64,000 nt of DNA, from NCBI GenBank assembly GCA_963825005.1, contig CAWGRP010000019.1, positions 239,742 to 303,741 of the forward strand. Direction: 5' to 3'. The notes beneath the pieces are model-generated. The model was not told the DNA's origin. It was given only the letters and a program-made list of their open reading frames with translations, and ran no database searches. The stretch is from an uncultured delta proteobacterium. GTDB lineage: Bacteria; Desulfobacterota; Syntrophorhabdia; Syntrophorhabdales; WCHB1-27. The position numbers and the translations under genes were made by a program. This document shows positions 20,610 through 49,555 of the stretch, in pieces; position 1 is the stretch's first letter, and each line of letters opens with the position of its first letter.

Positions 20610-20842
20610 GGCTAGCTAGCGCCTCCATTAACCAAATCTAATACCAATTCGTGGTCAAGGGTGTAGGCCGGGGGGCACTCCGGGCCACACGAACAAATGT
20701 GCATGAGAAAATGGAAAGGCAAAGGCCGGTTAGTTCAGGGGCACGTGAGAAATGCGTATAAAAAAGGAAGGGGCGGGGAAGACCGTTTTCTCCGCTCTCT
20801 CAATAGATTGCAGGTTCTATTTAGTGCACGCGAGAAGTGGAT

Positions 20843-21107
20843 GGCCAGCCGGAAGAACTGTTCGTTCCACGAGTTAGGCGCTGCAGGTCTGACCCGCGCT
20901 ACACTCCGCCTCCTTCGATGCTCATTGCGAACTCCTCTTTTCAGGCTTCCTGTATTGGCAGCTCGCAAAATATAGGATTTGCGTCTGCTCGGCCTCGGAG
21001 TCAGGCGCATCGTGCCGCGCCAATCACATGCGCGGCAACAGTCGTCTCCGCTGCCGGGTCCCCAGACCTTCCGCGATACTCGTTCCACGAACAGTTCTTC
21101 CGGCCGG
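20843..21107 (-). repeat. Family-1 repeat, subtype 1, copy A1 (about 265 nt, rod-forming)
   Basis: The reverse complement aligns end to end with 25881-26143 and 44330-44597. Terminal arms are GGCCAGCCGGAAGAAC / GTTCTTCCGGCCGG. Confidence 0.85.
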
Positions 21108-21169
21108 TCATTATGTGCGTTGTTGTGTCTGACAAAATTTTAAAACAATACCGTAGAGCCCGGTGGGCT

Positions 21170-21417
21170 GGGAGGACCTTTTTCGGAGCGAACATCGCGG
21201 AAGGGCTGGGGACCCGTAAACGCAGGCGAGTGGTGCTGCACATCGTGAGGTGCAGCACGATGCGTCCGACTCCGAGGCCTCGCAGCTCTGAACAATCTGG
21301 TTTGCGAGCTGCCATGGTAATCTACGGTACCCGAGGGGTTCGCAGTCAAAAAGCATCGAACTCGCCGGAGTGTCCAACGGGTCAGACCTGGAGCGTCTAG
21401 AGAGCGGAGAAAACGGT
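21170..21417 (+). repeat. Family-1 repeat, subtype 2, copy A2
   Basis: By eye, the reverse complement of 25527-25775 differs from this copy at only scattered positions. It shares conserved blocks with subtype 1 (ATCGCGGAAGGGCTGGGGACCCG, GACTCCGAGGCC, GTTTGCGAGCTGCC, GTTCGCA, CGGGTCAGACCTGGAGCG). Confidence 0.85.
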
Positions 21418-21532
21418 GCGAGCAGCCCGCCCTTTCCCGCGGCGTGGATTTCTTGCTCTTCCGTGTTTAGTGTATAGTTAGCGCCGTTGCGATGACCATT
21501 GCTGTGGTGAATGCGGACACACCGGGCGTCAT

Positions 21533-23704
21533 GTGAGCATGAAAGAATCGCGGTTTCAATTCGGCCTCTATTTCTTGCCCTTCGTCATATGGGTTCCGCT
21601 CATCATTTTTCTTCTCTGGTTTGTCTTCCATTACGTTGACCTGAAGCCGCAGGTAAACGAGAACTTCTTCTTCGCGAGCAGTGATCCGCAACTGCAGACA
21701 GACCGGTTGATCTCGAAGCTCTTTATACAGGAAGATCAACTCGTCGTGGCTGCAACGGGTGACATCCGTTCTCCTCGATATCTCGAGAAATTACACCGCC
21801 TGACGGAAGAGCTCTCGGCTATTCCGCAGATTGACACGGTGGAATCCCTGGTAAAAGGACCCAAGGACACTGATGAGGCCCTGAAGAGCCCTCTCTGGAA
21901 ACGGGTCCTCTTTTCCGAAGATCACAAGGCTTCTTTTGTCTACGTCTGGGTAAAGCGGCAAGCTTCGTTGGATAAAGCGGTCGCGGGGATTGAACATGTT
22001 GTGCTCCGTCTGAATACGCCCGATTTTCCACTCAGGATATCCGGCGCCCCGTACATCATGCATCTCATCGAGCGCAATCTTTTGCGAGACCTGAAGATAT
22101 TCAGCATTGGGGCCTTTTGTGTCTTCGGACTCTGCGGCCTCGCAATATCGCGCTCAATTCCCATGGTCCTTGGAACGCTGATCGCCTGCACCATCGCAAG
22201 CGCCGTCACTCTGATGCTGACGCACAAATTCGCCATACCGGTCGGGCCTCTCACTGCCAACCTTTCCACGATCGTCTTCGTGCTCACGCTCACCCACATG
22301 GTATTCATGACCTACAATTTCCGGCACATCATCCAGAAGAAAGAGGCAGCTCTCGATGAAGCGTGGCGCCGGGCGGTAAGGGTCACGATACTGCCGTCGT
22401 CTTTGAGCATGCTCACCGCGCTTTTCGGTTTTTTGAGCCTTCTTATCGTTCCTGCAACACCGCTGCGCCAACTGGGAATCTCCGGTGCCATCGGGACGGT
22501 TATCGCTTTCGTATCAGCTTATGTTGTCTATCCTTTATTTCTGAGGGCACAAAGATCAGGCCTCGCTCCTCAACATAAGAAGACGGCGGATGCGCGCACC
22601 GAATCGACAGACGTAGCGCCATTCTTCAGAAAGAGGCACGGCAGGATTGTTGCGCTCATTCTCATCGCTGCAGCGGGTGCTTCGATAGGCCTCTGGACGC
22701 TGAACACGGAGCCGAGTATCTTTTCCTATTTCAAGAAAGGGAGCGAACTGAGAACGAGTCTCGAATATTTCGACCGGAACGGCGGGAGCATCCCGCTCAA
22801 TATGGTGGTGGCGAATCCCAATAAGGCGCCGTTCAAGATCGGTGAAGACTACCAGAGGCTCTGGAACCTTCAGACGGCACTGGAGAAGGATCCTGCCGTA
22901 GGAACCGTAATGTCTCTGGCGCTCCTTCTCGCCGAGGCCAAGACCAGGCACCCGGTACTCACCTTTTTTATTCCGCTGAAATGGGTGCTGAAAGCGTTGG
23001 AAAGCAGCCGCTTCGAGAACGCGGCAAAGTATTACATATCAAATGATGAATCGAAAACGCTCCTCGTGCTGAGAATGAAAGAGGAGTCGCAGCAATCCGA
23101 TCGGCTGGCAAACGTTGAGCGGCTGAAGAAAATAGTCCGCAAAGAAGGGTTTGAGCCGGTGCTCATAGGAGGCACGTACGTGCTGTATGGGAAACTTTCA
23201 AAGCTCGTGGGATCGAGTCTCATCGAAGGTCTCGGGCTTCTGGTCCTGATGTTCACGATCATGGGCGGTATCATCTCCCGCTCCTTCAGAGTGACTGTGG
23301 CGGTCTTCATCGGTTTGGCTGATATTCCTCTCCTGCTGCTTGGCCTGATAGGTCTTTTCCGTATTCCTATAGATATCATTTCAGCTCCCGGCGCCAATAT
23401 CGCCATCGGGATCGGCGTGGATGCGATGATCCACATGCTTATCTGGGTGAGACGCCACCCGGCCGGCATGCGCTCCTGGGAGGCGTGGTCTCCCGTCAGC
23501 TCGAGATTGCGAAAGCCGATTCTTTATTCCATGAGCGTCGTCTGTGCCGGATTCGGAATCTTCATGCTGTCCGGTTTCCCTCCCACGCAGCGTTTTGGTT
23601 TCTCGGTCGTACTGGGAACATTGCTGACGCCGCTCTCGGCGCTCTTCATCCTGCCATGGTTCAGCACGATGCAACTGGGTTGGCATCGTTCAAAGGTTTC
23701 ATGA
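21533..23704 (+). CDS. MMPL/RND-superfamily membrane transporter
   Basis: 723 aa with two blocks of about 6 TM helices separated by soluble loops, the typical MMPL/SSD architecture. Confidence 0.75.
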   Translation: MSMKESRFQFGLYFLPFVIWVPLIIFLLWFVFHYVDLKPQVNENFFFASSDPQLQTDRLISKLFIQEDQLVVAATGDIRSPRYLEKLHRLTEELSAIPQIDTVESLVKGPKDTDEALKSPLWKRVLFSEDHKASFVYVWVKRQASLDKAVAGIEHVVLRLNTPDFPLRISGAPYIMHLIERNLLRDLKIFSIGAFCVFGLCGLAISRSIPMVLGTLIACTIASAVTLMLTHKFAIPVGPLTANLSTIVFVLTLTHMVFMTYNFRHIIQKKEAALDEAWRRAVRVTILPSSLSMLTALFGFLSLLIVPATPLRQLGISGAIGTVIAFVSAYVVYPLFLRAQRSGLAPQHKKTADARTESTDVAPFFRKRHGRIVALILIAAAGASIGLWTLNTEPSIFSYFKKGSELRTSLEYFDRNGGSIPLNMVVANPNKAPFKIGEDYQRLWNLQTALEKDPAVGTVMSLALLLAEAKTRHPVLTFFIPLKWVLKALESSRFENAAKYYISNDESKTLLVLRMKEESQQSDRLANVERLKKIVRKEGFEPVLIGGTYVLYGKLSKLVGSSLIEGLGLLVLMFTIMGGIISRSFRVTVAVFIGLADIPLLLLGLIGLFRIPIDIISAPGANIAIGIGVDAMIHMLIWVRRHPAGMRSWEAWSPVSSRLRKPILYSMSVVCAGFGIFMLSGFPPTQRFGFSVVLGTLLTPLSALFILPWFSTMQLGWHRSKVS

Positions 23705-23724
23705 AGAAGAATATAAATAGAATT

Positions 23725-23963
23725 TCATCGCAGATGAACGCAGATAAGGAAAAGAGAGATGTTCACAGATGATATGCCGGTGGACAGCATTGAGATAGAG
23801 CGACAATGCTGTCCACACTTCAGCGCTCCGCGGGTCAGGTCTCACCCCACCGGAGGTGCTGGGGTTGACCGGCTGTGACGCTCTATCACACAGGCGGTCA
23901 AGAAATAATCATCAGCGTTCATCATAGCCCTTATCCGCTCTTATCTGCGATGAAGAAAGCGGG
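23725..23963. repeat. Family-4 MITE-like repeat, long copy 1
   Basis: Termini TCATCGCAGATgaacGCAGATAAGG / CCCTTATCCGCTCTTATCTGCGATGA. Internal 13-bp hairpin GTGGACAGCATTG...CAATGCTGTCCAC. Homologous to 32652-32914. Confidence 0.8.
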
Positions 23964-25440: not shown

Positions 25441-25526
25441 TCTCCATTCGAGTAGGTAGGAGCGATCAGAAAGGCATCCGACGAGTTGAGTCGACTAGAA
25501 CCGTACCGAAGGGGGGGGCGGGGAGG

Positions 25527-25775
25527 ACCGTTTTCTGCACTCTCTAGGCGCTCCAGGTCTGACCCGTTGGACACTCCGGCGAGTTCGATGCTTTTTGACT
25601 GCGAACCCCTCGGGTACCGTAGATCACCATGGCAGCTCGCAAACCTGCATTGTTCTGACCTGCTAGGCCTCGGAGTCGGACGCATCGTGCTGCACCTCGC
25701 GATGTGCAGCACCACTCGCCTGCATTTACGGGTCCCCAGCCCCTCCGCGATGTTCGCTCCGAAAAAGGTCCTCCC
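25527..25775 (-). repeat. Family-1 repeat, subtype 2, copy B2
   Basis: Reverse complement of A2 (21170-21417). Confidence 0.85.
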
Positions 25776-25880
25776 CGCCCTCACCCGGTCGATGATAAAT
25801 TGAACACGACGAAAATTTAATCGTCAGACATAAATCGTGCAGGGTATTGGCATTTACAAGAAAAGTAACGACTATGGTAT

Positions 25881-26143
25881 GGCCAGACGGAAGACTTTCG
25901 TGGAACGAGTATCGCGGGAGGTCTGGGGACCCGGCAGCGCAGACGACTGGTGCCGCGTATCTGATTGGCGCGGCACGACGCGCCTGACTCCGAGGCTTGA
26001 GTGAGCGTCAGAGGTTAGTTTGCGAGCTGCCGATCTCGGAAGATTGGAGAAAGGTGTTCGCAATGAGCGTCGAAGGAGGCGGAGCGTAGCACGGGTCAGA
26101 CCGGGAGCGCCTAACTCGTGGAATGAAAGTGTTCCGGCTGGCC
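25881..26143 (+). repeat. Family-1 repeat, subtype 1, copy B3
   Basis: GGCCAGACGGAAGACTTTCGTGGAACGAGTATCGCGGGAGGTCTGGGGACCCGG...CGGGTCAGACCGGGAGCGCCTAACTCGTGGAATGAAAGTGTTCCGGCTGGCC. Confidence 0.85.
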
Positions 26144-32632: not shown

Positions 32633-32651
32633 GCGTAGAAAGGACAGAATC

Positions 32652-32914
32652 TCATCGCAGATTTACGCAGATGAATAAAAGAGATATTCGCAGAGTGCGC
32701 AGCCTCCTGTAAGGGTGACCAAGCTTGTGTCCAGCATTGTGATACAGCGTCAATGCTGTCCATCCACCCGCAAGCGGGTACCCGAGCGCTCCGCGCAGGG
32801 GTGTCACCTCACCGGAGGTGCTGCAGGTTGACCGGCTGTGCCGCCCTATCGCACAGGCGGTCAAGAATGAATCATCCGCAGTTATCAGAGCCTTTATCCG
32901 CTCTTATCTGCGAT
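32652..32914. repeat. Family-4 MITE-like repeat, long copy 2
   Basis: Termini TCATCGCAGATttacGCAGATGAAT / GCCTTTATCCGCTCTTATCTGCGAT. The interior is collinear with 23725-23963 (..CACCGGAGGTGCTG..GTTGACCGGCTGTG..CACAGGCGGTCAAGAA..). Confidence 0.8.
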
Positions 32915-32992
32915 AAAATGCTCTGTCTTAATGAACTGGACGGTGAAAAGGTTCAAAAAGTTTGACAACCTATAAGAAATAAGGAGATCAAT

Positions 32993-36946: not shown

Positions 36947-36960
36947 AGGGGTAACAATTT

Positions 36961-37052
36961 ATGCAGATGAAAGCTGATAAGAGCCAAGAGAGATGTTCGC
37001 AGATGCGTATGATCGTTCATCAAGGCTTTTATCCGCTCTTATCGGCGATGAA
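36961..37052. repeat. Family-4 repeat, short (termini-only) copy
   Basis: GCAGATGAAAGCTGATAAGAGCC...GGCTTTTATCCGCTCTTATCGGCGATGA. It creates the spurious N-terminal extension of ORF 36961..37509. Confidence 0.7.
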
Positions 37053-37104
37053 AAGCAGTGTCTTGCGAAAAGGGTTTGACACTGAAGCGAGGAGGGAGGA
37101 GATT

Positions 37105-37509
37105 TTGGAAAATCAAAGGGAAATAAAAATAATGGTTGCCAAACCTGGACTCGACGGCCACGACAGGGGCGCCAAAGTAGTGGCCCACGCGCTCAAGGAA
37201 GCCGGCCTGGAAGTGATCTATACAGGACTTCATAAGACGGTCGATCAGATTGTGAGAATCGCCATCCAGGAGGACGTGGACATTATCGGACTTTCGATCA
37301 TGAGCGGCGCGCACATTCCGATTGTCGAAAAGCTGATGAAGAAAGTGGAGCAGGAAGGGATACAGGACAAGATGGTAATCGTGGGAGGCGTGATCCCGAA
37401 TAAAGATATTGCCCGGCTCAAGGAGCTCGGCGTCTCCGGTGTCTTTCCCGGCGGCACGCCCTTTTCGGAAATCGTGACGTTCATAAAGGAACAGGTGAAA
37501 CCGGCGTAG
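37105..37509 (+). CDS. Acyl-CoA mutase small subunit (cobalamin-binding domain)
   Basis: B12-binding DxHxxG motif in VAKPGLDGHDRGAKVVA. TTG 37105 follows GGAGGGAGGA (37091-37100); ATG 37132 is an alternative start. Confidence 0.85.
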   Translation: MENQREIKIMVAKPGLDGHDRGAKVVAHALKEAGLEVIYTGLHKTVDQIVRIAIQEDVDIIGLSIMSGAHIPIVEKLMKKVEQEGIQDKMVIVGGVIPNKDIARLKELGVSGVFPGGTPFSEIVTFIKEQVKPA

Positions 37510-37548
37510 AAGAGCGGCCAAAAGGTCTTGTGACAAGCAAAGGACGAT

Positions 37549-37775
37549 TTCACCACAGAGGCACAGAGGTCACAGAGAAGTGCTCCACGGAGAACCGAAA
37601 TTATTCGTGTCCGAAACAGTGGAGATTCTGTTCCGGACACACACCGACGCTCCGCGTAGGTGTGGAAGGCATCTCGCCTCCCGCAGGGATGCGAGTGACC
37701 GGATATGGTCGTCTCCCCATATCCGGTCGAAACTACTTAGGGCTTCCTCTGTGTACTCTGTGCCTCCGTGGTGAA
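37549..37775 (+). repeat. Family-2 repeat, copy 1 (about 227 nt)
   Basis: Terminal inverted repeats CACCACAGAGGCACAGAG / CTCTGTGCCTCCGTGGTG and four internal hairpins. Collinear with 41261-41488. Confidence 0.85.
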
Positions 37776-37828
37776 TACAAGTAGTTTTCGAAGCCTGGCG
37801 AAAAGTCGGGCACGAGTAGGAGGATTGA

Positions 37829-39457
37829 ATGGGAGTTGCAAAATATACTAAGGATGAGAAAGATCAGATAGTCGATGTGACGCTTCAGTCGGGCATCCAT
37901 GTGAAGCCGCTCTACGGGCCCGAGGATCTGGAAAAGATCGGTTTTTCCTATGAGCGCGATCTCGCGGACCCCGGCACGTATCCGTTTACGAGGGGCATAC
38001 ACCGTCAAGGGTATCGCAGCCGCGCCTGGACAACGAGGCAGTACACGGGCTTCGGCACACCCTACGAGACGAATGAACGGTTCAAGCTGATGATCGCGCA
38101 TGGTCAGACCGGATTGAATGTGGCGTTCGATCTGCCTACCCAAATGGGCTATGACTCCGACGACCCGATCGCCGAAGGCGAAGTAGGCCGCGTAGGGATG
38201 GCAGTCGACTCGCTCAGGGATTTTGAAGTGGCATTCAAAGATATCAACCTGGCGAAGATAGGATCAGGGCTGACGATCAATGCGGTAGCATCCATCATGC
38301 TCGCGATGTACCAGGCTGTTGCCGAGAAATTCGGTTATAGTCGCGACGCAATATCGGCCACACCGCAGAATGATATCCTGAAAGAGATGATCGGACGCGG
38401 CTCGTGGATCTTCCCGGTAGAACCGGCGGTGAAGCTGATCGGCGACACCATTGAATATTCGATTGAGGCCCTTCCTCGCACAAACCCGGTCAGCGTCTGC
38501 GGCTACCACATCAGGGAATCGGGGGCAACGCCCGCGCAGGAGATCGGATACGCCATACTGATCGCCAACGCGTACATAGACAATGTGATCGCCAGAGGCT
38601 ACGACGTGGATGCGTTTGTCGGCCGCTTCTCTTTCAACTTCAACGTGTTCGGCAATATCTGGGAACAGGTGGCGAAATTCAGGGCAGGACGCAAACTCTG
38701 GGCGAGAAATCTCAAGGAAAAATACGGCGTCAAGAAAGATTCGAACATGTACTTACGGGGCCTCTTCGGCGGCGGAGGATACGGCCTCACGAAAGCTCAG
38801 CCCGAGAACAACATCATGCGCGGAGCCTATTACGCGCTTTCTGCCGCGCTCGCAGGAGCGCAGACTATAGCGCTCTGCAGCTATGATGAAGCCTACACCA
38901 TACCGACGCCGCATTCAGCCATCATTTCTCTGCGCACGCTGCAGCTTCTCATGGATGAGATAGGCCTGCGCGACACAGTCGATCCTCTGGCCGGAAGCTA
39001 CTTCATAGAGACGCTCACCAAAGAGATGGAGCAGAAGATCGAAGAAGAGATGGCTCAGATAGAGAAAGCGGGAGGAATCACACAGGCTGTGGCGACCGGT
39101 TACATTCAGAGGCTGGTTGCACGACAGGCCTACGAGTTCGAGAAAGGCATCCAATCAGGAGAGCTCCTCAAGGTCGGCGTGAACATCTATACCGACGAAC
39201 AACCGATGGACGTCGAACTGCACGAATACAACTGGGAATCGGCGGAAAAGCAGATGGAAGGGCTCAAGCAGGTGAAGCGGGAGAGGAATAACCGGGAAGT
39301 AACGCGCACGCTTGCAGCGCTGGAGCAGGCAACAAAAGAGGGTAAGAACGTCATGCCTTATCTCGTGGAATGCTGCAAAGCGTATGCAACGGTCGGCGAA
39401 ATGACGTCGATCTTCAGAAACATCTACGGAGAATTCGACGAGCCGAGTCTGTTCTGA
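37829..39457 (+). CDS. Methylmalonyl-CoA-mutase-family large (catalytic) subunit
   Basis: YPFTRGIH..GYRSRAWTTRQYTGFGTPYETNERFK....GQTGLNVAFDLPTQMGYDSDDPIAEGEVGRVGMAVDSL. Confidence 0.9.
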   Translation: MGVAKYTKDEKDQIVDVTLQSGIHVKPLYGPEDLEKIGFSYERDLADPGTYPFTRGIHRQGYRSRAWTTRQYTGFGTPYETNERFKLMIAHGQTGLNVAFDLPTQMGYDSDDPIAEGEVGRVGMAVDSLRDFEVAFKDINLAKIGSGLTINAVASIMLAMYQAVAEKFGYSRDAISATPQNDILKEMIGRGSWIFPVEPAVKLIGDTIEYSIEALPRTNPVSVCGYHIRESGATPAQEIGYAILIANAYIDNVIARGYDVDAFVGRFSFNFNVFGNIWEQVAKFRAGRKLWARNLKEKYGVKKDSNMYLRGLFGGGGYGLTKAQPENNIMRGAYYALSAALAGAQTIALCSYDEAYTIPTPHSAIISLRTLQLLMDEIGLRDTVDPLAGSYFIETLTKEMEQKIEEEMAQIEKAGGITQAVATGYIQRLVARQAYEFEKGIQSGELLKVGVNIYTDEQPMDVELHEYNWESAEKQMEGLKQVKRERNNREVTRTLAALEQATKEGKNVMPYLVECCKAYATVGEMTSIFRNIYGEFDEPSLF

Positions 39458-39463
39458 GAACTA

Positions 39464-39491
39464 CAGGGTCCAGGGTCCAGGGTCCAGGGTC
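39464..39491. repeat. Tandem heptamer array (CAGGGTC)x4
   Basis: Read directly from the sequence. It sits just after the mutase stop and is followed by GCTAGTAA/GCTGGCAA word repeats up to about 39570. Confidence 0.8.
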
Positions 39492-39575
39492 CGGGAATAG
39501 AAGAAGAAAGTATTAAGCTGGCAAGCCGGATAGCTAGTAAGCTAGTAAGCTGGCAAGCTAAGAGCTGAGGGCTGA

Positions 39576-40013
39576 ATGAAAATTCAAAAGATCGACCACA
39601 TCTGTTTTGCGGTAAAGGACCTCGAAAGAACAAAACAGATGTACAGCGATAACTTCGGTCTCCTGCCGGAAGTGGAGTACGTCGCCGAAGCGGAGCACAT
39701 AAAGGTGGCTCGTTACTACATCGGCGATGTGGCTGTGGAGCTGATGGAATCTACATCACCGGAGGGAGAGGTAGCAAAATTCATCAAGAAGAGAGGTGAG
39801 GGCGTCTTTCTCATCTCTTATAGGGTGGACGATCTCAAAGCGGCATTGACCGAACTCAAGGCGAAAGGTGCAGACCTGATCGATCAGGAACCGAGGGAGC
39901 TATTCGGCAATCGCTATGCATTCGTGCAGCGGCCGGACAAGCTTTGCGGCGTGCTCACCGAGCTTCTCGATGGAGAATTCGACAAGAGCAAAGTTCCGTT
40001 ACTGAAGAAGTAG
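39576..40013 (+). CDS. Methylmalonyl-CoA epimerase (VOC/glyoxalase-fold)
   Basis: MKIQKIDHICFAVKDLE...VELMESTSPEG.V.KFI.KRGEG..H..Y.V.D. Supported by the genomic context with the mutase. Confidence 0.8.
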   Translation: MKIQKIDHICFAVKDLERTKQMYSDNFGLLPEVEYVAEAEHIKVARYYIGDVAVELMESTSPEGEVAKFIKKRGEGVFLISYRVDDLKAALTELKAKGADLIDQEPRELFGNRYAFVQRPDKLCGVLTELLDGEFDKSKVPLLKK

Positions 40014-40072
40014 TTGATGTGTTTGCGGAAAAAGCATCGCACAAAAAAATTTGAACCGGCAAGGGGGTTACC

Positions 40073-41215
40073 ATGCGCGCGCTAGTGGTCGGCGGAACGG
40101 GAGGTATGGGTCAGGGTGTCGCCCGGGACCTCATCAAACAGGAGCAGATCAAGGACGTCATTCTGGGTGATATAAATATAGATCAGTCTCGCGTGCAGGA
40201 TAAGCTGCGCGATAGCAAAAAAGTATCGCTCAAGAAGATCGATGTAAACGATCATGGCGGCATGGTGGACGCAATCCGCGGGGCTGACGTTGTCATCAAC
40301 TGCGCAGGGCCATTCTACAAGACTGCGGTGGCGGTTGCCAGAGCGGCAATCGATGCGAAGGTCAACTACATAGATATTTGCGACGACTACGAAGCGACTG
40401 ACATTCTTTTCGCTTCTGACATTAATGATGCGGCCAGGAAAGCAGGGATCACCGTGCTGACGGGCATGGGATCGGATCCGGGAACCAACAACGTAATAGT
40501 CAAATGGTATGCGGATCATCTGGATAGCGTGGACGAGATTGCTTTGTTCTGGGTGGTGAGTATAGCCGAGCTCCGGGGCGCAGCCTGGGATCATGGCCTC
40601 CATATGATCATAGGTAAGATCCCCCAGTACCTGGATGGTAAACTGGAATATGTGGAAGGGGGAACCGGCGAGGAGACGGCGAAATTTCTCGAACCCCTGG
40701 GCGTCTGTGAGGTTCGCTACGTGGGTCATCCTCAGCCGCTCACGATACCCCGCTATATACCGGGTGTAAAAAGTGTTGTTATCAAGGGTGCCCTTATCCC
40801 GCTATGGGTGGACCAGCTGATTAAGGAGCAGAAAGAGACAGGCTTTCTCGGTAAAGAGCCGGTAGACGTGAAGGGTGCGCAGGTGACACCCTATGATCTG
40901 ACCCTGCGGCTCTGGGAAACTATTCCGATCGGCAGGGATAACGGGCCCGCAGCCTCCGGTCTCAAGGTCATCGTAAGAGGTAAGAGAAAAGGAGTGCAGG
41001 TAACCTACACCGCAGACATAGTGGGCAGGATGGCGCCCGGGACGGGTCTTCCCGCCTCTATCGCGGCTCTCATGATGGATGCGGGCGATGTCAAGGCGAA
41101 GGGCGTGGTGGCCCCGGAAGGCTGTATCGATCCCGGGAAATTCCTTACCGCATTGCTCCAGAGGGGTGCAAGGATACATCAAACGGAAACGATAACGTCC
41201 ATGCTCAGTGTGTAG
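40073..41215 (+). CDS. Saccharopine-dehydrogenase-family NAD(P)-binding protein
   Basis: Rossmann N-terminus ALVVGGTGGMGQGVARDL and ..VVINCAGPFYKT...YIDICDD. Confidence 0.75.
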   Translation: MRALVVGGTGGMGQGVARDLIKQEQIKDVILGDINIDQSRVQDKLRDSKKVSLKKIDVNDHGGMVDAIRGADVVINCAGPFYKTAVAVARAAIDAKVNYIDICDDYEATDILFASDINDAARKAGITVLTGMGSDPGTNNVIVKWYADHLDSVDEIALFWVVSIAELRGAAWDHGLHMIIGKIPQYLDGKLEYVEGGTGEETAKFLEPLGVCEVRYVGHPQPLTIPRYIPGVKSVVIKGALIPLWVDQLIKEQKETGFLGKEPVDVKGAQVTPYDLTLRLWETIPIGRDNGPAASGLKVIVRGKRKGVQVTYTADIVGRMAPGTGLPASIAALMMDAGDVKAKGVVAPEGCIDPGKFLTALLQRGARIHQTETITSMLSV

Positions 41216-41260
41216 TGGCCGGTGAATTTGTTAAACGTTTTATGAAAAAGGAAATGAAAA

Positions 41261-41488
41261 TTCTACCACAGAGGCACAGAGGGCACAGAGAAGTGCTCCA
41301 CGGAGAAAGAATAATTTCGTGTCCGGAACAGTGGAGATTCTGTTCCGGACACACACCGACGCTCCGCGTAGGTGTAGTAAGTACCTGTGCCCCGCAGGGG
41401 TGCAGGTGACCGGATATGGCCGTCTCCCCATATCCGGTCAGAAACTACTTAAGGCTTTCCTCTGTGTCCTCTGTGCCTCCGTGGTGAA
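41261..41488 (+). repeat. Family-2 repeat, copy 2
   Basis: Same orientation as copy 1 and collinear with it. Confidence 0.85.
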
Positions 41489-41526
41489 TGAAAATAACTG
41501 ACATGCCTTAGTCAAAGGAGCATGCT

Positions 41527-42789: not shown

Positions 42790-43030
42790 GAGGGAAGACC
42801 GCCGCGGGCTAGGAAGATCGTTCGCGATGCTCACTAGGAAGACCGCCTTCGGCTAGGAAGATGGAAGAGAGAAACCTATATCTACTGAGACGGTACCAGC
42901 GGATGTTCGCTTTTGCTTCCTAGTCACGCCAAGGCGTGACGGTCTTCCTGGCGCGTAGCGCGATCTTCCCCCCTTCGGGGACTTCGCCTCTTCCTAGCCC
43001 TCCAGGTCCCCGCAAGGGGGGCAGCGGTCT
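42790..43030. repeat. Family-3 word repeat element, copy 1
   Basis: Multiple CTAGGAAGA(C/T)CG words in both orientations around the core GGAAGAGAGAAACCTATATCTACTG..ACCAGCGGATGTTCGCTTTTGCTTCCTAGTCACGCC. Collinear with 49056-49298. Confidence 0.8.
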
Positions 43031-43095
43031 TTTTCCATTTGACATCGGATATTGGTTCTATCTATAATAGGTCAGACCTATTAGCGGAGGTGTCT

Positions 43096-44262
43096 ATGAG
43101 CGGCTATCACAAAAGGGATTTTGACAATTTCCCGATGCATACGATCACAAGGGTCGACCGGCCCACGACGATCATACATGACAACGAGGTAAAGAGAGTC
43201 GATGAGCGCGACAGCGGCTTCAATAAAGCATCCGCGGGCCTGTACGGTCCCATCCTAGCCAAGGAGAGACCGCGCTTCGTCATGAAGCATCCCCTCTCAG
43301 GGGCACTCGGACAGATGCAGCTTTTTCTCAGGGATATCGTCGACGGCATGGTGGCGAAGCAAAAGGCTCCGATCCCGGAAGATCCTTCGATTCTGGCTCG
43401 CCACATCAAGGAGACGGCCTACTTCTTGAGGTCGGATGCCGTCGGTATCTGCGAGCTTCCCCCGTATGCAGTCTACACCCACAGCTTTCCTGACGGCGAG
43501 CCGGTGGAGTGCAATCACAAATATGCCATAGGCATTCTTATCGATCAGGACTATAGAACATCACATGCCACGAACGGTCATAACTGGATCAGCAACTCGA
43601 TGAGCTTCGTAGCCTATTCCGCATCCGGTTTTATCGCGTGTATTCTCGCCGAGTATATCCGGAGACTCGGTTATCCTGCAAGGGCGCATCACGCCCGTAA
43701 CTATCAGGTAGTCGTCCCCCCGATCCTTCTGTGGGCAGGCCTGGGCGAGATGAGCCGGATCGGCGACAGTGTGCTCCATCCTTTCATGGGGCCCCGTTTC
43801 AAGGCAGCGGTTGTGACGACCGATCTGCCCATGGCTATCGACAAGCCGATCGATTTCGGATTGCAGGATTTTTGCTCCAAGTGTAAGAAGTGCGCCCGCG
43901 AATGCCCGTCCGGTGCGCTCACCGATGGCGGCAAAGAGATATACAACGGCTACGAACACTGGCCGAGTAACATTCGCAAATGCACTACCATGCGCGTGGG
44001 GAACCAGCACGGCTCGGGCTGCGGCACCTGTATCAAGGCCTGTCCCTGGAATAAGCCCTATACGCCGTTTCACCGCGCGGTGGGCTGGGCCATGCGCCAT
44101 TCAGGCGCAGCGCGAAGCCTCGCCATCTGGGGTGACGATCTGATGGGTTACGGCAAGGCCCATCCGGAGGAGCAGTGGTGGCTCGATCTCGAAGAGATCG
44201 ACGGGGTGGTGCAATTACCAAGGAAGCACACAGGCAAACATCTATGGGCAGCGGACGAATAA
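43096..44262 (+). CDS. Reductive-dehalogenase (RdhA)-family protein, cytoplasmic type with no Tat signal
   Basis: Two Fe-S motifs, CSKCKKCARECP and C..(x11)..CGTCIKACPW. The start MSGYHKRD at ATG 43096 follows GGAGG. The ORF track starts at 43039. Confidence 0.75.
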   Translation: MSGYHKRDFDNFPMHTITRVDRPTTIIHDNEVKRVDERDSGFNKASAGLYGPILAKERPRFVMKHPLSGALGQMQLFLRDIVDGMVAKQKAPIPEDPSILARHIKETAYFLRSDAVGICELPPYAVYTHSFPDGEPVECNHKYAIGILIDQDYRTSHATNGHNWISNSMSFVAYSASGFIACILAEYIRRLGYPARAHHARNYQVVVPPILLWAGLGEMSRIGDSVLHPFMGPRFKAAVVTTDLPMAIDKPIDFGLQDFCSKCKKCARECPSGALTDGGKEIYNGYEHWPSNIRKCTTMRVGNQHGSGCGTCIKACPWNKPYTPFHRAVGWAMRHSGAARSLAIWGDDLMGYGKAHPEEQWWLDLEEIDGVVQLPRKHTGKHLWAADE

Positions 44263-44329: not shown

Positions 44330-44597
44330 GGACAGCCGGAAGAACTTTCGTGGAACGAGCATCGCGGGAGGTCTGGGGACCCGGCAGCGGAGATGACTGG
44401 TGCCGCGTATCCGTATGGGCGCGGCACGACGCGTTCTGACTCCGAGGCTTGAGTAAACGTAAAGAGAATAGTTTGCGAAGTGCCAGAGGGCAAATGATCA
44501 TGGGCAACGTTCGCAATGAGCGTCGAAGGAGTCGGAGCGTAGCACGGGTCAGACCGGGAGCGCCTCGCTCGTGGAACGAACAGTCTTCCGGCTGGCC
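44330..44597 (+). repeat. Family-1 repeat, subtype 1, solitary copy C
   Basis: Collinear with B3 and with the reverse complement of A1. Confidence 0.85.
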
Positions 44598-46396: not shown

Positions 46397-46418
46397 CGAT
46401 GTGAGGGAGGAGGAAGCT

Positions 46419-47600
46419 ATGAGCGGCTATCATAAACGGGATTGGGAAACATTCCCGATGCACAAGCTCAAGAGAGTCGATAGACCGACGACCTTGATCA
46501 ACGATGAGAAGGTCGCCCGGGTGCGGGAGCGGGAAAGCGGCTTTCATAAAGCCGCTGCGGGTGATTATGGTCCCGTGCTCGTAAGGGAGTTCAGACGCTT
46601 TGTGCCGAAGCAGCCGATATCGGGCGCGCTCACGTGGATGAGGAATGCAATGAGACCTCTGGTCGACGGCATGGTCGCTGCCCAGAAGGCTCCTATTCCA
46701 ACGGACCCGGCAGCGCTCACCCGTCACGTCAAAGAAACCGCCTATTTCCTGAGGGCGGACGCAGTGGGCGTGTGTGAACTGCCGCGTTATGCTATTTACA
46801 GCCATAAGTTCGACTTCATGAAACCGGAAGCAGGAGAGCAACCGGTCGAGCTGGATCATAAGTATGCCATTACCGTGCTCATCGATCAGGACTACAGAAC
46901 ATCGCAGGCCTATTCAGGCAGCGATTGGATCAGCAACGCGATGAGCATGATGTCGTATGCCACCTCAGGTTTCATCGCGATCATCCTCGCCGACTACATC
47001 AGGAGGCTCGGCTATCCCGCTAAAGCGCACTACGCGCCCTTCTATGATGTGGTGCTGCCGCCTCTCATACTGCTCTCCGGCCTCGGCGAGATGAGCAGAA
47101 TCGGCGATTCGGTGCTCCACCCCTTTCTCGGGCCGCGATTCAAAGGGGCTGTGGTGACGACCGATCTTCCGCTTCTTGCGGACAAGCCTATCGATTTCGG
47201 CCTTCAGGATTTCTGTTCGAAGTGTAAGAAGTGCGCCCGTGAGTGTCCGAGCGGCGCCATAAGCGACGGCGGCAAGGAGATGTTCAACGGCTACGAGAAA
47301 TGGCCGATGGACAAAAAGAAGTGTACCGGTATGCGCGTCGGCAATCAGAGAGGTTCAGGCTGCGGCACGTGCATCAAGGTCTGTCCCTGGAGCAAGCCGT
47401 ACACGCCATTCCACAGGGCGGTAGGATGGAGCATGCGACACTCAGGGCTGGCCAGGAGCCTTGCGATCTGGGGAGACGACCTGATGGGCTACGGCAAGCC
47501 TGACTACAGCAGAAAGTGGTGGTTCGATCTCGAAGATGTGGCAGGAGACGGCATCTTAAAGATCCCCGCGAACAGGAAAAGCGAGTTCGAAGAGAGGTGA
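46419..47600 (+). CDS. Reductive-dehalogenase (RdhA)-family protein, cytoplasmic type; paralog of 43096..44262
   Basis: Same N-terminus MSGYHKRDW and the same Fe-S motifs CSKCKKCARECP and CGTCIKVCPW. By eye it is similar to paralog 1 along the whole length. Confidence 0.75.
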   Translation: MSGYHKRDWETFPMHKLKRVDRPTTLINDEKVARVRERESGFHKAAAGDYGPVLVREFRRFVPKQPISGALTWMRNAMRPLVDGMVAAQKAPIPTDPAALTRHVKETAYFLRADAVGVCELPRYAIYSHKFDFMKPEAGEQPVELDHKYAITVLIDQDYRTSQAYSGSDWISNAMSMMSYATSGFIAIILADYIRRLGYPAKAHYAPFYDVVLPPLILLSGLGEMSRIGDSVLHPFLGPRFKGAVVTTDLPLLADKPIDFGLQDFCSKCKKCARECPSGAISDGGKEMFNGYEKWPMDKKKCTGMRVGNQRGSGCGTCIKVCPWSKPYTPFHRAVGWSMRHSGLARSLAIWGDDLMGYGKPDYSRKWWFDLEDVAGDGILKIPANRKSEFEER

Positions 47601-49055: not shown

Positions 49056-49298
49056 GACCGCTGCGCTAGGAAGACCGTTCGCGATGCTCACTAGGAAGAC
49101 CGCCTTCGGCTAGGAAGATGGAAGAGAGAAACCTATATCTACTGGACGGACCAGCGGATGTTCGCTTTGCTTCCTAATCACGCCAGAGGCGTGATGGTCT
49201 TCCTAGCGAACGTAGTGAGCGGTCTTCCTAGCGCGCAGCGCGGTCTTCCCTCTTCCTAGCGAACGTAGTGAGCGATCTTCCTAGCGAAGCGATCTTCC
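49056..49298. repeat. Family-3 word repeat element, copy 2
   Basis: Collinear with 42790-43030, with extra CTAGCGAACGTAGTGAGCG(G/A)TCTTCCTAG words at the right end. Confidence 0.8.
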
Positions 49299-49324: not shown

Positions 49325-49399
49325 TGGAGGCGGCATCCGGATTTGAACCGGAGAATAACGGTTTTGCAGACCGCTGCCTTACCACTTGGCTATGCCGCC
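49325..49399 (-). tRNA. tRNA-Cys (GCA), CCA-encoded
   Basis: Manual fold of GGCGGCA-TA-GCC..GGC-A-GCGGT CTGCAAA ACCGT-TATTC-TCCGG TTCAAAT CCGGA-TGCCGCC-T-CCA. Confidence 0.9.

Positions 49400-49480: not shown

Positions 49481-49555
<75 letters not shown>

Follow-up and report, generated by a model that had tools for sequence, protein, structure and literature searches.

A palindromic repeat with heptad termini in two spacers of a Syntrophorhabdales mutase operon: a probable non-autonomous mobile element

Introduction

Palindromic intergenic repeats are a known kind of bacterial sequence. The architecture of REPINs, in which doublets of repetitive extragenic palindromic (REP) units are mobilised by RAYT transposases, has been described (PMC3116915, PMC3337134), as have the features of MITEs (miniature transposable elements with inverted repeats) and the cleavage by RNase III at Correia inverted repeats (PMC10969869, PMC2649163). 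Here we analysed a 64,000-nt stretch of DNA (hereafter the window) from an uncultured deltaproteobacterium of the Syntrophorhabdales (assembly GCA_963825005.1, contig CAWGRP010000019.1 of 525,838 bp, positions 239,742 to 303,741), in which two copies of a 227-nt palindromic repeat, termed family 2, lie within one mutase operon. Each copy is probably a ~300-nt non-coding insertion of a non-autonomous mobile element of MITE or REPIN type. Our literature searches on the terminus strings, and on MITEs in Syntrophorhabdus and Deltaproteobacteria, found nothing relevant, and this family, together with the superfamily to which its termini belong, appears to be undescribed.

Results

Two copies of the repeat in one operon

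Copy 1 occupies positions 37549-37775 and copy 2 positions 41261-41488, both on the + strand, collinear and co-oriented. BLAST comparison gave 88.9% identity over 226 nt, which bears out the preliminary description of two direct repeats of ~227 nt; the outer flanks are unrelated. The copies are 3.7 kb apart and their longest identical run is 49 nt. The operon reads MeaB, two acyl-CoA dehydrogenases, B12-binding small subunit, copy 1, MCM large subunit, glyoxalase-type epimerase, saccharopine-dehydrogenase-like (SDH-like) gene, copy 2 and class-III aminotransferase. The earlier placement of copy 1 between the mutase subunit genes, and of copy 2 between the SDH-like gene and the aminotransferase, was thus correct. 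Proteins of Syntrophorhabdaceae and of Syntrophorhabdales metagenome-assembled genomes (MAGs) match the mutase at 84-90% identity. The mechanically called open reading frame (ORF) of the B12-binding small subunit (36961-37509, 182 aa) starts too far upstream and overruns a repeat; alignment with 134-aa orthologs places its true start at a TTG codon at 37105.

Both sites are empty in relatives

Empty sites, which the preliminary description had proposed to look for in related genomes, were found at both positions in three loci recovered through homologs of the SDH-like protein (L148, L149 and L150). All three have the eight-gene operon of the window, collinear and at ~80% nucleotide identity. 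The spacer between the B12-subunit and MCM genes is 319 nt long in the window vs. 8 nt in L148, and the spacer between the SDH-like and aminotransferase genes measures 311 nt in the window, 65 nt in L148 and 32 nt in L152. The ACAD2/B12-subunit spacer is also longer, with 158-160 nt in the window vs. 41 nt in L148; the remaining four operon spacers differ by at most 33 nt between the two. No family-2 sequence was present in L144-L152. As the syntenic operon of the relatives lacks either copy, both copies are insertions. The element landed independently in two spacers of a co-directional Syntrophorhabdales mutase operon. The relatives first collected through MCM (L144-L147) were not used as empty-site reference because of their different operon context. 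L138 was rejected as an ortholog of site 2, its upstream gene being an unrelated cyclase.

At site 1, alignment of the window with L148 runs to position 37512 and resumes at 37817, and both flanks align to one and the same L148 hexamer, TAGGAG, which defines a 304-nt insert flanked by TAGAAG and TAGGAG. These flanks may represent a target duplication or chance. An 8-nt direct repeat around copy 2, ATGAAAAT, was rejected as a target duplication, for the same right-flank sequence follows the L140 copy and a remnant of it is found in L138. The ribosome-binding sites of the downstream genes are kept beside the insertions. In the closest relative, L151 (95% nucleotide identity over the SDH-like gene), the SDH-like/aminotransferase spacer is filled by an unrelated repeat with CTAGGAAGA-like subrepeats (L151 1377-1593). 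The operon spacers turn over quickly.

The element is a degenerate inverted dimer

The 19-mer terminus CACCACAGAGGCACAGAGG, with up to 3 mismatches allowed, occurs four times in the window, at both ends of each copy, with 0.00 occurrences expected from shuffles. The terminal inverted repeats and four hairpins (H1 to H4) that had been reported from first inspection are present as described, with the refinement that the termini are ~30 nt each, comprise three CACAGAG heptads, are ~90% complementary, and that conserved sequence continues outside them. Since the sequence conserved between copies reaches past the termini, each insertion is ~300 nt long and fills its whole spacer. The copy 1 insertion (~304-307 nt) extends over 37510..37816, in place of the 8-nt spacer of L148, and that of copy 2 over 41216..41513, the outer limits of the latter being approximate and set by spacer comparison with relatives.

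Outside the left terminus, the copies have in common an A/T-rich leader of ~35-45 nt with the consensus TGTCAAAAGTTTCATGAAAAAC...GGACGATT, and a short extension to the right is also common to them. The copy 1 leader (37510..37548), which ends with CAAAAGGTCTTGTGACAAGCAAAGGACGAT, is homologous to the left flanks of copy 2 and of the copies in L141, L138 and L140; the copy 2 leader (41216..41260) has TGTTAAACGTTTTATGAAAAAG in place of the consensus TGTCAAAAGTTTCATGAAAAAC. By inspection, the leader matches the IHF consensus only with 2 mismatches. In some copies a 10-nt mini-hairpin is inserted within the terminus (CACCAC-CCGCTTCGCT-AGAGG).

When the left half of the element is aligned to the reverse complement of the right half, H1 corresponds to H4 and H2 to H3, loops included, so that the element is a degenerate inverted dimer. 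The 227-nt palindrome consists of two inverted half-units of ~113 nt, each formed by a three-heptad terminus followed by two local hairpins. All parts are given here on the + strand. In copy 1, the left terminus (37549..37580) carries its three CACAGAG heptads as TTCACCACAGAGGCACAGAGGTCACAGAGAAG. It is followed by H1 (37607..37640), a 13-bp stem with one A.C mismatch (GTGTCCGAAACAG) and the loop TGGAGATT, and by H2 (37641..37663), which reads ACACC.ACGC-TCC-GCGT.GGTGT. The second half holds H3 (37673..37695), which has a variable stem with compensatory changes and a GNA loop (CTCGCCTCCC-GCA-GGGATGCGAG), H4 (37696..37729), a diverged reverse complement of H1 with a 12-13-bp stem and an 8-nt loop, and the right terminus (37743..37775). 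Copy 2 has the same order of left terminus (41261..41293), H1 with a perfect 13-bp stem (41319..41352), H2 (41353..41375), H3 (41384..41406; CCTGTGCCCC-GCA-GGGGTGCAGG), H4 (41407..41440) and right terminus (41455..41488). The TNC loop of H2 becomes GNA when read on the minus strand.

Predicted fold energies were -124.3 kcal/mol for copy 1 and -135.4 kcal/mol for copy 2, with z-scores of -10 and -12, respectively, vs. shuffles. The reverse strand of copy 1 folds equally well (-133.2 kcal/mol), and whole-element fold energies and G.U counts were equal on both strands in all six full copies, so that these two measures revealed no asymmetry in the strand of action. The 84-aa ORF of the element had no Pfam match, and indels of 1-2 nt between copies break the reading frame. 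No convincing sigma-70-like promoter or intrinsic terminator was found in the element by promoter and terminator scanning.

The hairpins are maintained between copies

The comparison of H3 was based on five distinct sequences from six full-length copies. In these, pairing holds in 91.8% of the cells, and both partners have changed in 3 of 10 pairs; when the partners were slid, pairing fell to 33-53%. The covariation score was reached by only 12 of 500 shuffles. The three compensatory changes between the window copies, pointed out in the preliminary description, are therefore real, and the additional copies also vary in a compensatory and not a random manner. The loop is GNA in every full copy (GCA, GCA, GAA, GAA, GTA and GGA). 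H1 shows one compensatory change, from G-C to A-U, and H2 and H4 are invariant in the pairing comparison.

Mean pairwise identity among the six full copies was 0.91 for H1, 0.95 for H2, 0.95 for H4 and 0.71 for H3, vs. 0.60-0.73 for the linkers, 0.57 for the left terminus and 0.75 for the right terminus. Structure is clearly maintained in the element, and this is compatible with its action as RNA or as DNA. The covariation of H3 is no proof of RNA function, because both strands fold alike and the whole element is a degenerate DNA palindrome. A kissing interaction between the H1 and H4 loops (GGAGA/UCUCC) was considered and dropped, as loop variation is not compensatory and the complementarity follows from the palindromic origin.

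The core is dispersed among unrelated genes

A scan of one genome per species with an 18-mer of the H1/H2 junction returned 19 matches, which is about the number estimated for a random 18-mer in 596 billion bases, and the element was present at only two of these loci. One, in a Syntrophorhabdales MAG (L128), has one full and one truncated copy; in the other, from an uncultured deltaproteobacterium (L138), the copy is truncated where the contig ends. Scanning metagenomes for a 22-mer yielded L140, L141, L143 and L142, four loci of which the last duplicates L128. Public genomes and metagenomes thus yielded ~8 copies of the core, six of them of full length; as these scans required exact 18-22-mers, this number is a lower bound. 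The neighbours differ at each site (cyclase, coiled-coil/SurA-like, DUF3739/MotA-ExbB, DctM/UPF0182, GNAT and RraA-like genes), which indicates that the element is dispersed. Orientation is the same as that of the adjacent genes in six of eight copies, a bias that is not significant.

Scans of viral contigs for the core, with the H1/H2 junction and with H4, gave 0 matches, and BLAST of the element against 120 viral loci matched at the termini only. Similarly, the metagenome and metatranscriptome contigs that aligned to copy 1 were mostly terminus-only matches from other elements. Three Candidatus Eisenbacteria MAGs (L125, L129 and L133) and L137 hold a 26-nt stretch 96% identical to the H1/H2 junction (TTCCGGACACACACCGACGCTCCGCG), with the rest of the element absent; a single chance match passed down to related genomes is the probable explanation. 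In metagenome X1, depth was 23-27 over H3/H4 vs. ~3 over the flanking genes, and H4 modules may outnumber whole elements. A 258-nt metatranscriptome contig of run X16, aligning at window position 37594, contains a match to the left terminus followed by a diverged H1 (GTGTCCGGAACA). From this match, a family-2-like copy was present in the RNA library, with DNA carry-over possible.

The termini define a large superfamily

The terminus motif was found in at least 120 IMG/VR loci. Relaxed matching gave at least 132 terminus pairs, nearly all 56-400 nt apart among the matches listed, and these comprised at least 90 distinct elements of 56-400 nt with unrelated cores, the core often being merely a GC-rich hairpin. 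The terminus consensus is TTC-ACCAC with an A-rich tract at -6 to -13. Triloops were GNA or TNC in 13 of 19. Within one element, heptad variants (CACGAAG and CACAAAG, for example) change together. Among the same listed matches, none of the 90 elements had direct flank repeats of 4 nt or longer, and in the 50-nt flanks of 88 of the 90 direct repeats were no commoner than in permuted controls.

Members of the superfamily were also found nested at one another's centre, in L114, in a Gemmatirosa kalamazoonensis plasmid and, with a CACAGAG-type inside a CGCAGAT-type element, in L027 and L080. On the plasmid (L153, plasmid 1 of 193.4 kb, locus 316-480), a CACAGAG-type element sits exactly at the centre of a CCGCAGAG-type element. 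The superfamily is thereby shown to occur in another phylum, in a cultured soil bacterium. In the plasmid collection as a whole, matches were at the level of the terminus only and were confined to Gemmatirosa plasmids; the phage collection gave no matches. Taken together, the matches indicate that the heptad termini are common to a very large family of palindromic elements of 56-400 nt with unrelated cores, found in several phyla and on viral contigs.

The intervals between long-range terminus pairs (L005, L030, L063, L038 and L079) contained no autonomous element; they corresponded to neighbouring small elements and had no transposase-like ORF layout. Pfam analysis of the window ORFs near the repeats revealed no transposase, integrase or reverse transcriptase.

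Other repeats in the window

The window holds a second family of the same build, family 1, at 23714-23955 and 32645-32917, with inverted termini made of CGCAGAT heptads (TCATCGCAGATGAACGCAGATAAGG...) and several core hairpins. The first of these is preceded by the family-2 leader, at 23688-23709. A short core-less member of the CGCAGAT family (36958-37055) lies in the ACAD2/B12-subunit spacer, the next spacer upstream of copy 1. Repeats with CTAGGAAGA subrepeats occur at 42808-42887, 49065-49144 and 49196-49286, two of them 99% identical, and inverted copies of this family adjoin two tRNA genes (49328-49399 and 49484-49555).

Larger duplications were seen as well. Two segments of ~600 nt (20841-21440 and 25508-26127), in inverted orientation and 85-95% complementary, flank 4 kb encoding an MMPL-family protein and a GT4 glycosyltransferase, with no transposase seen between them; a third, partial copy lies 18 kb away at 44344-44589. 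Paralogous genes with 4Fe-4S domains at 43039-44262 and 46401-47600 are ~72% identical in DNA and 3.3 kb apart, with GntR-family and DctP genes between them.

Discussion

A probable mobile element and its possible mode of spread

The empty sites in a collinear operon, the unrelated neighbours of the other copies and the non-coding, palindromic build are what we would expect of a non-autonomous mobile element, and such an element would be moved by an enzyme encoded elsewhere. GNA triloops form unusually stable DNA mini-hairpins. A mechanism acting on folded DNA is likelier than classical DDE cut-and-paste, given the lack of target duplication across the superfamily, the way members nest at palindrome centres and the GNA hairpins; an enzyme of HUH/RAYT type or similar might recognise the folded single-stranded or cruciform form. 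The covariation of the hairpins may then reflect selection for, or self-templated maintenance of, palindromes needed for spread. Co-transcription of the element with the operon is to be expected, as the operon is co-directional and has short spacers; the transcript would contain a duplex of ~30 bp and four hairpins. By analogy with Correia and ERIC elements, it would be a likely determinant of RNase III cleavage or of stability, placed between the genes of the two mutase subunits.

Several observations weigh against this interpretation. The imperfect 6-nt direct repeat at site 1 could be a target duplication, contrary to a duplication-free mechanism, and no mobilising enzyme was found in the tested window ORFs or between the long-range terminus pairs of viral loci. 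Copies of the core number only ~8, a lower bound from exact-word scans. The conserved leader lies outside the inverted termini and occurs in another repeat family too, which makes the ends of the mobile unit approximate. Our search for RNA runs covering the locus matched none. Finally, H1, H2 and H4 (0.91-0.95) are better conserved than the termini (0.57-0.75) and the linkers, a pattern that would not normally be expected of a selfish MITE and that points to a constrained core.

Alternative explanations

This constraint is also the starting point of an explanation that partly overlaps with the mobile-element interpretation and that we consider rather doubtful, namely that the four-hairpin core is a functional cis-acting RNA module for processing, stability or translation coupling in polycistronic mRNAs, which a mobile vehicle has spread and the host retains. 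The near-identity of H1, H2 and H4 across genomes, where termini and linkers drift, would fit such a module, as would an H3 stem that varies yet remains paired around a fixed GNA loop, with G.U pairs on the + strand (45 of 49 cells paired vs. ~40 of 49 on the minus strand). The retained downstream ribosome-binding sites and the metatranscriptome contig with a family-2-like copy agree with it as well. Yet DNA palindromes needed for mobility would covary too, whole-element fold energy is equal on both strands, and A.C mismatches of the terminal stem on the + strand are G.U on the minus strand. The orientation of six of eight copies with neighbouring genes, although in the expected sense, falls short of significance, and the operon works in the absence of the element, as its element-free ortholog shows. 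No RNA run matched the locus, and Rfam 15 at gathering score recognised only the two tRNAs of the window and nothing on the element; the best permissive match there was a Lysine riboswitch on the minus strand (16.3 bits vs. a gathering score of 30). The element thus matches no described Rfam family; this search had been proposed in the preliminary description.

The preliminary description also proposed that the copies bracket the mutase/epimerase/SDH segment and, as direct repeats, could delete or duplicate its 3.4 kb. Such an event is physically possible, for the copies lie 3.7 kb apart and are 89% identical, and a 49-nt identical run is long enough in principle for RecA-dependent exchange; nothing that we found shows that it has occurred. 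The bracketing itself is incidental, since the copies are two independent insertions of a dispersed element in an operon collinear with its element-free ortholog, and the neighbouring spacers hold other element families. In addition, the segment encodes the catalytic mutase subunit, so that its loss would disable the pathway, and the metagenome containing the organism showed no recombinant joint, which counts for little as contigs there break at repeats. That the repeats matter mainly as a recombination substrate is therefore very improbable. Least probable of all, and largely refuted, is the idea of a small RNA gene with its own transcription, or of a retron- or attC-like site marking cassette boundaries, which a structured 227-nt unit with inverted ends at gene boundaries might bring to mind. 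Neither a sigma-70-like promoter nor an intrinsic terminator was called at the element, the tested neighbouring ORFs include no reverse transcriptase or integrase, Rfam gave no match, and the element-free operon keeps the same gene order, which shows that its genes are not cassettes. We hence retain the non-autonomous mobile element as the probable explanation. A more far-reaching proposal, which we put forward as speculative and consider unlikely as a whole, is that heptad-terminus palindromes form an undescribed multi-phylum class without target duplication that moves through folded single-stranded DNA, and that family 2, with its constrained four-hairpin core, serves in operons as a mobile RNA processing or stability cassette, here splitting the mutase subunit genes.

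Significance

The operon spacers of this lineage have been colonised repeatedly by structured palindromic elements, three of which are inserted in a single eight-gene operon whose counterpart in a relative is compact. Copy 1 turns a near-coupled 8-nt junction of the mutase subunit genes into a strongly folded spacer of 319 nt. If the element is cleaved, or if it stabilises the mRNA, both subunit stoichiometry and operon expression would be altered in a syntrophic degrader that is difficult to investigate directly. In soil, wetland and viral metagenomes, the CACAGAG-heptad terminus identifies a very abundant family, of which we found no description. Few mechanisms are known by which palindromic repeats spread, and identification of the mobilising enzyme would add to them. 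Metagenome assemblies also break at such repeats, which can moreover pass for regulatory RNAs.

Comparison with known systems

With BIMEs and the pneumococcal BOX, the element has in common a modular build, in which leader, termini, an optional 10-nt mini-hairpin and variable cores are combined and modules are common to different families; the module set is another one and there is no sequence relation. Like the Correia/NEMIS elements of Neisseria and ERIC, it is small, bounded by inverted repeats, has a conserved core and occurs in operons (PMC2649163, PMC2229807, PMC10969869). It would likewise be co-transcribed, has a repeat duplex of the kind that is an RNase III substrate, and has no known cognate transposase. 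The sequences of terminus and core are, however, unrelated to those of Correia/NEMIS and ERIC, and the core has four hairpins, one of them covarying. Correia elements have TA duplications, an IHF site and promoter elements, whereas here no TA flanks are present and no promoter-like site was called.

The element agrees with MITEs in being shorter than ~600 bp, in lacking coding capacity, and in having terminal inverted repeats, filled and empty sites and dispersed copies. It resembles the insertion sequence (IS)-derived MITEs QMITE2 and Nezha (PMC10969869) in size, terminal inverted repeats, non-coding and intergenic nature, the very stable predicted structure of the transcript, and the occurrence of filled and empty sites. 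In contrast to IS-derived MITEs, members of the family show no target duplication, a parent IS sharing the termini was not found among the tested window ORFs and the viral loci, and the termini are tandem heptads that are less conserved than the core.

In common with REPINs, the element consists of half-units joined as an inverted dimer that forms a long hairpin. It lies dispersed in intergenic sites and is non-coding, no target-site duplication is seen across its family, and no enzyme is encoded inside. The half-units differ in kind: REP is an imperfect palindrome of 20-40 nt with a GTAG-type 5′ tetranucleotide, whereas the half-unit here is ~113 nt long and composed of heptads and two hairpins. 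Its terminus, three non-palindromic CACAGAG heptads preceded by TTCACCAC, is not a REP unit. Unlike REPINs, the family to which it belongs spans several phyla and viral contigs.

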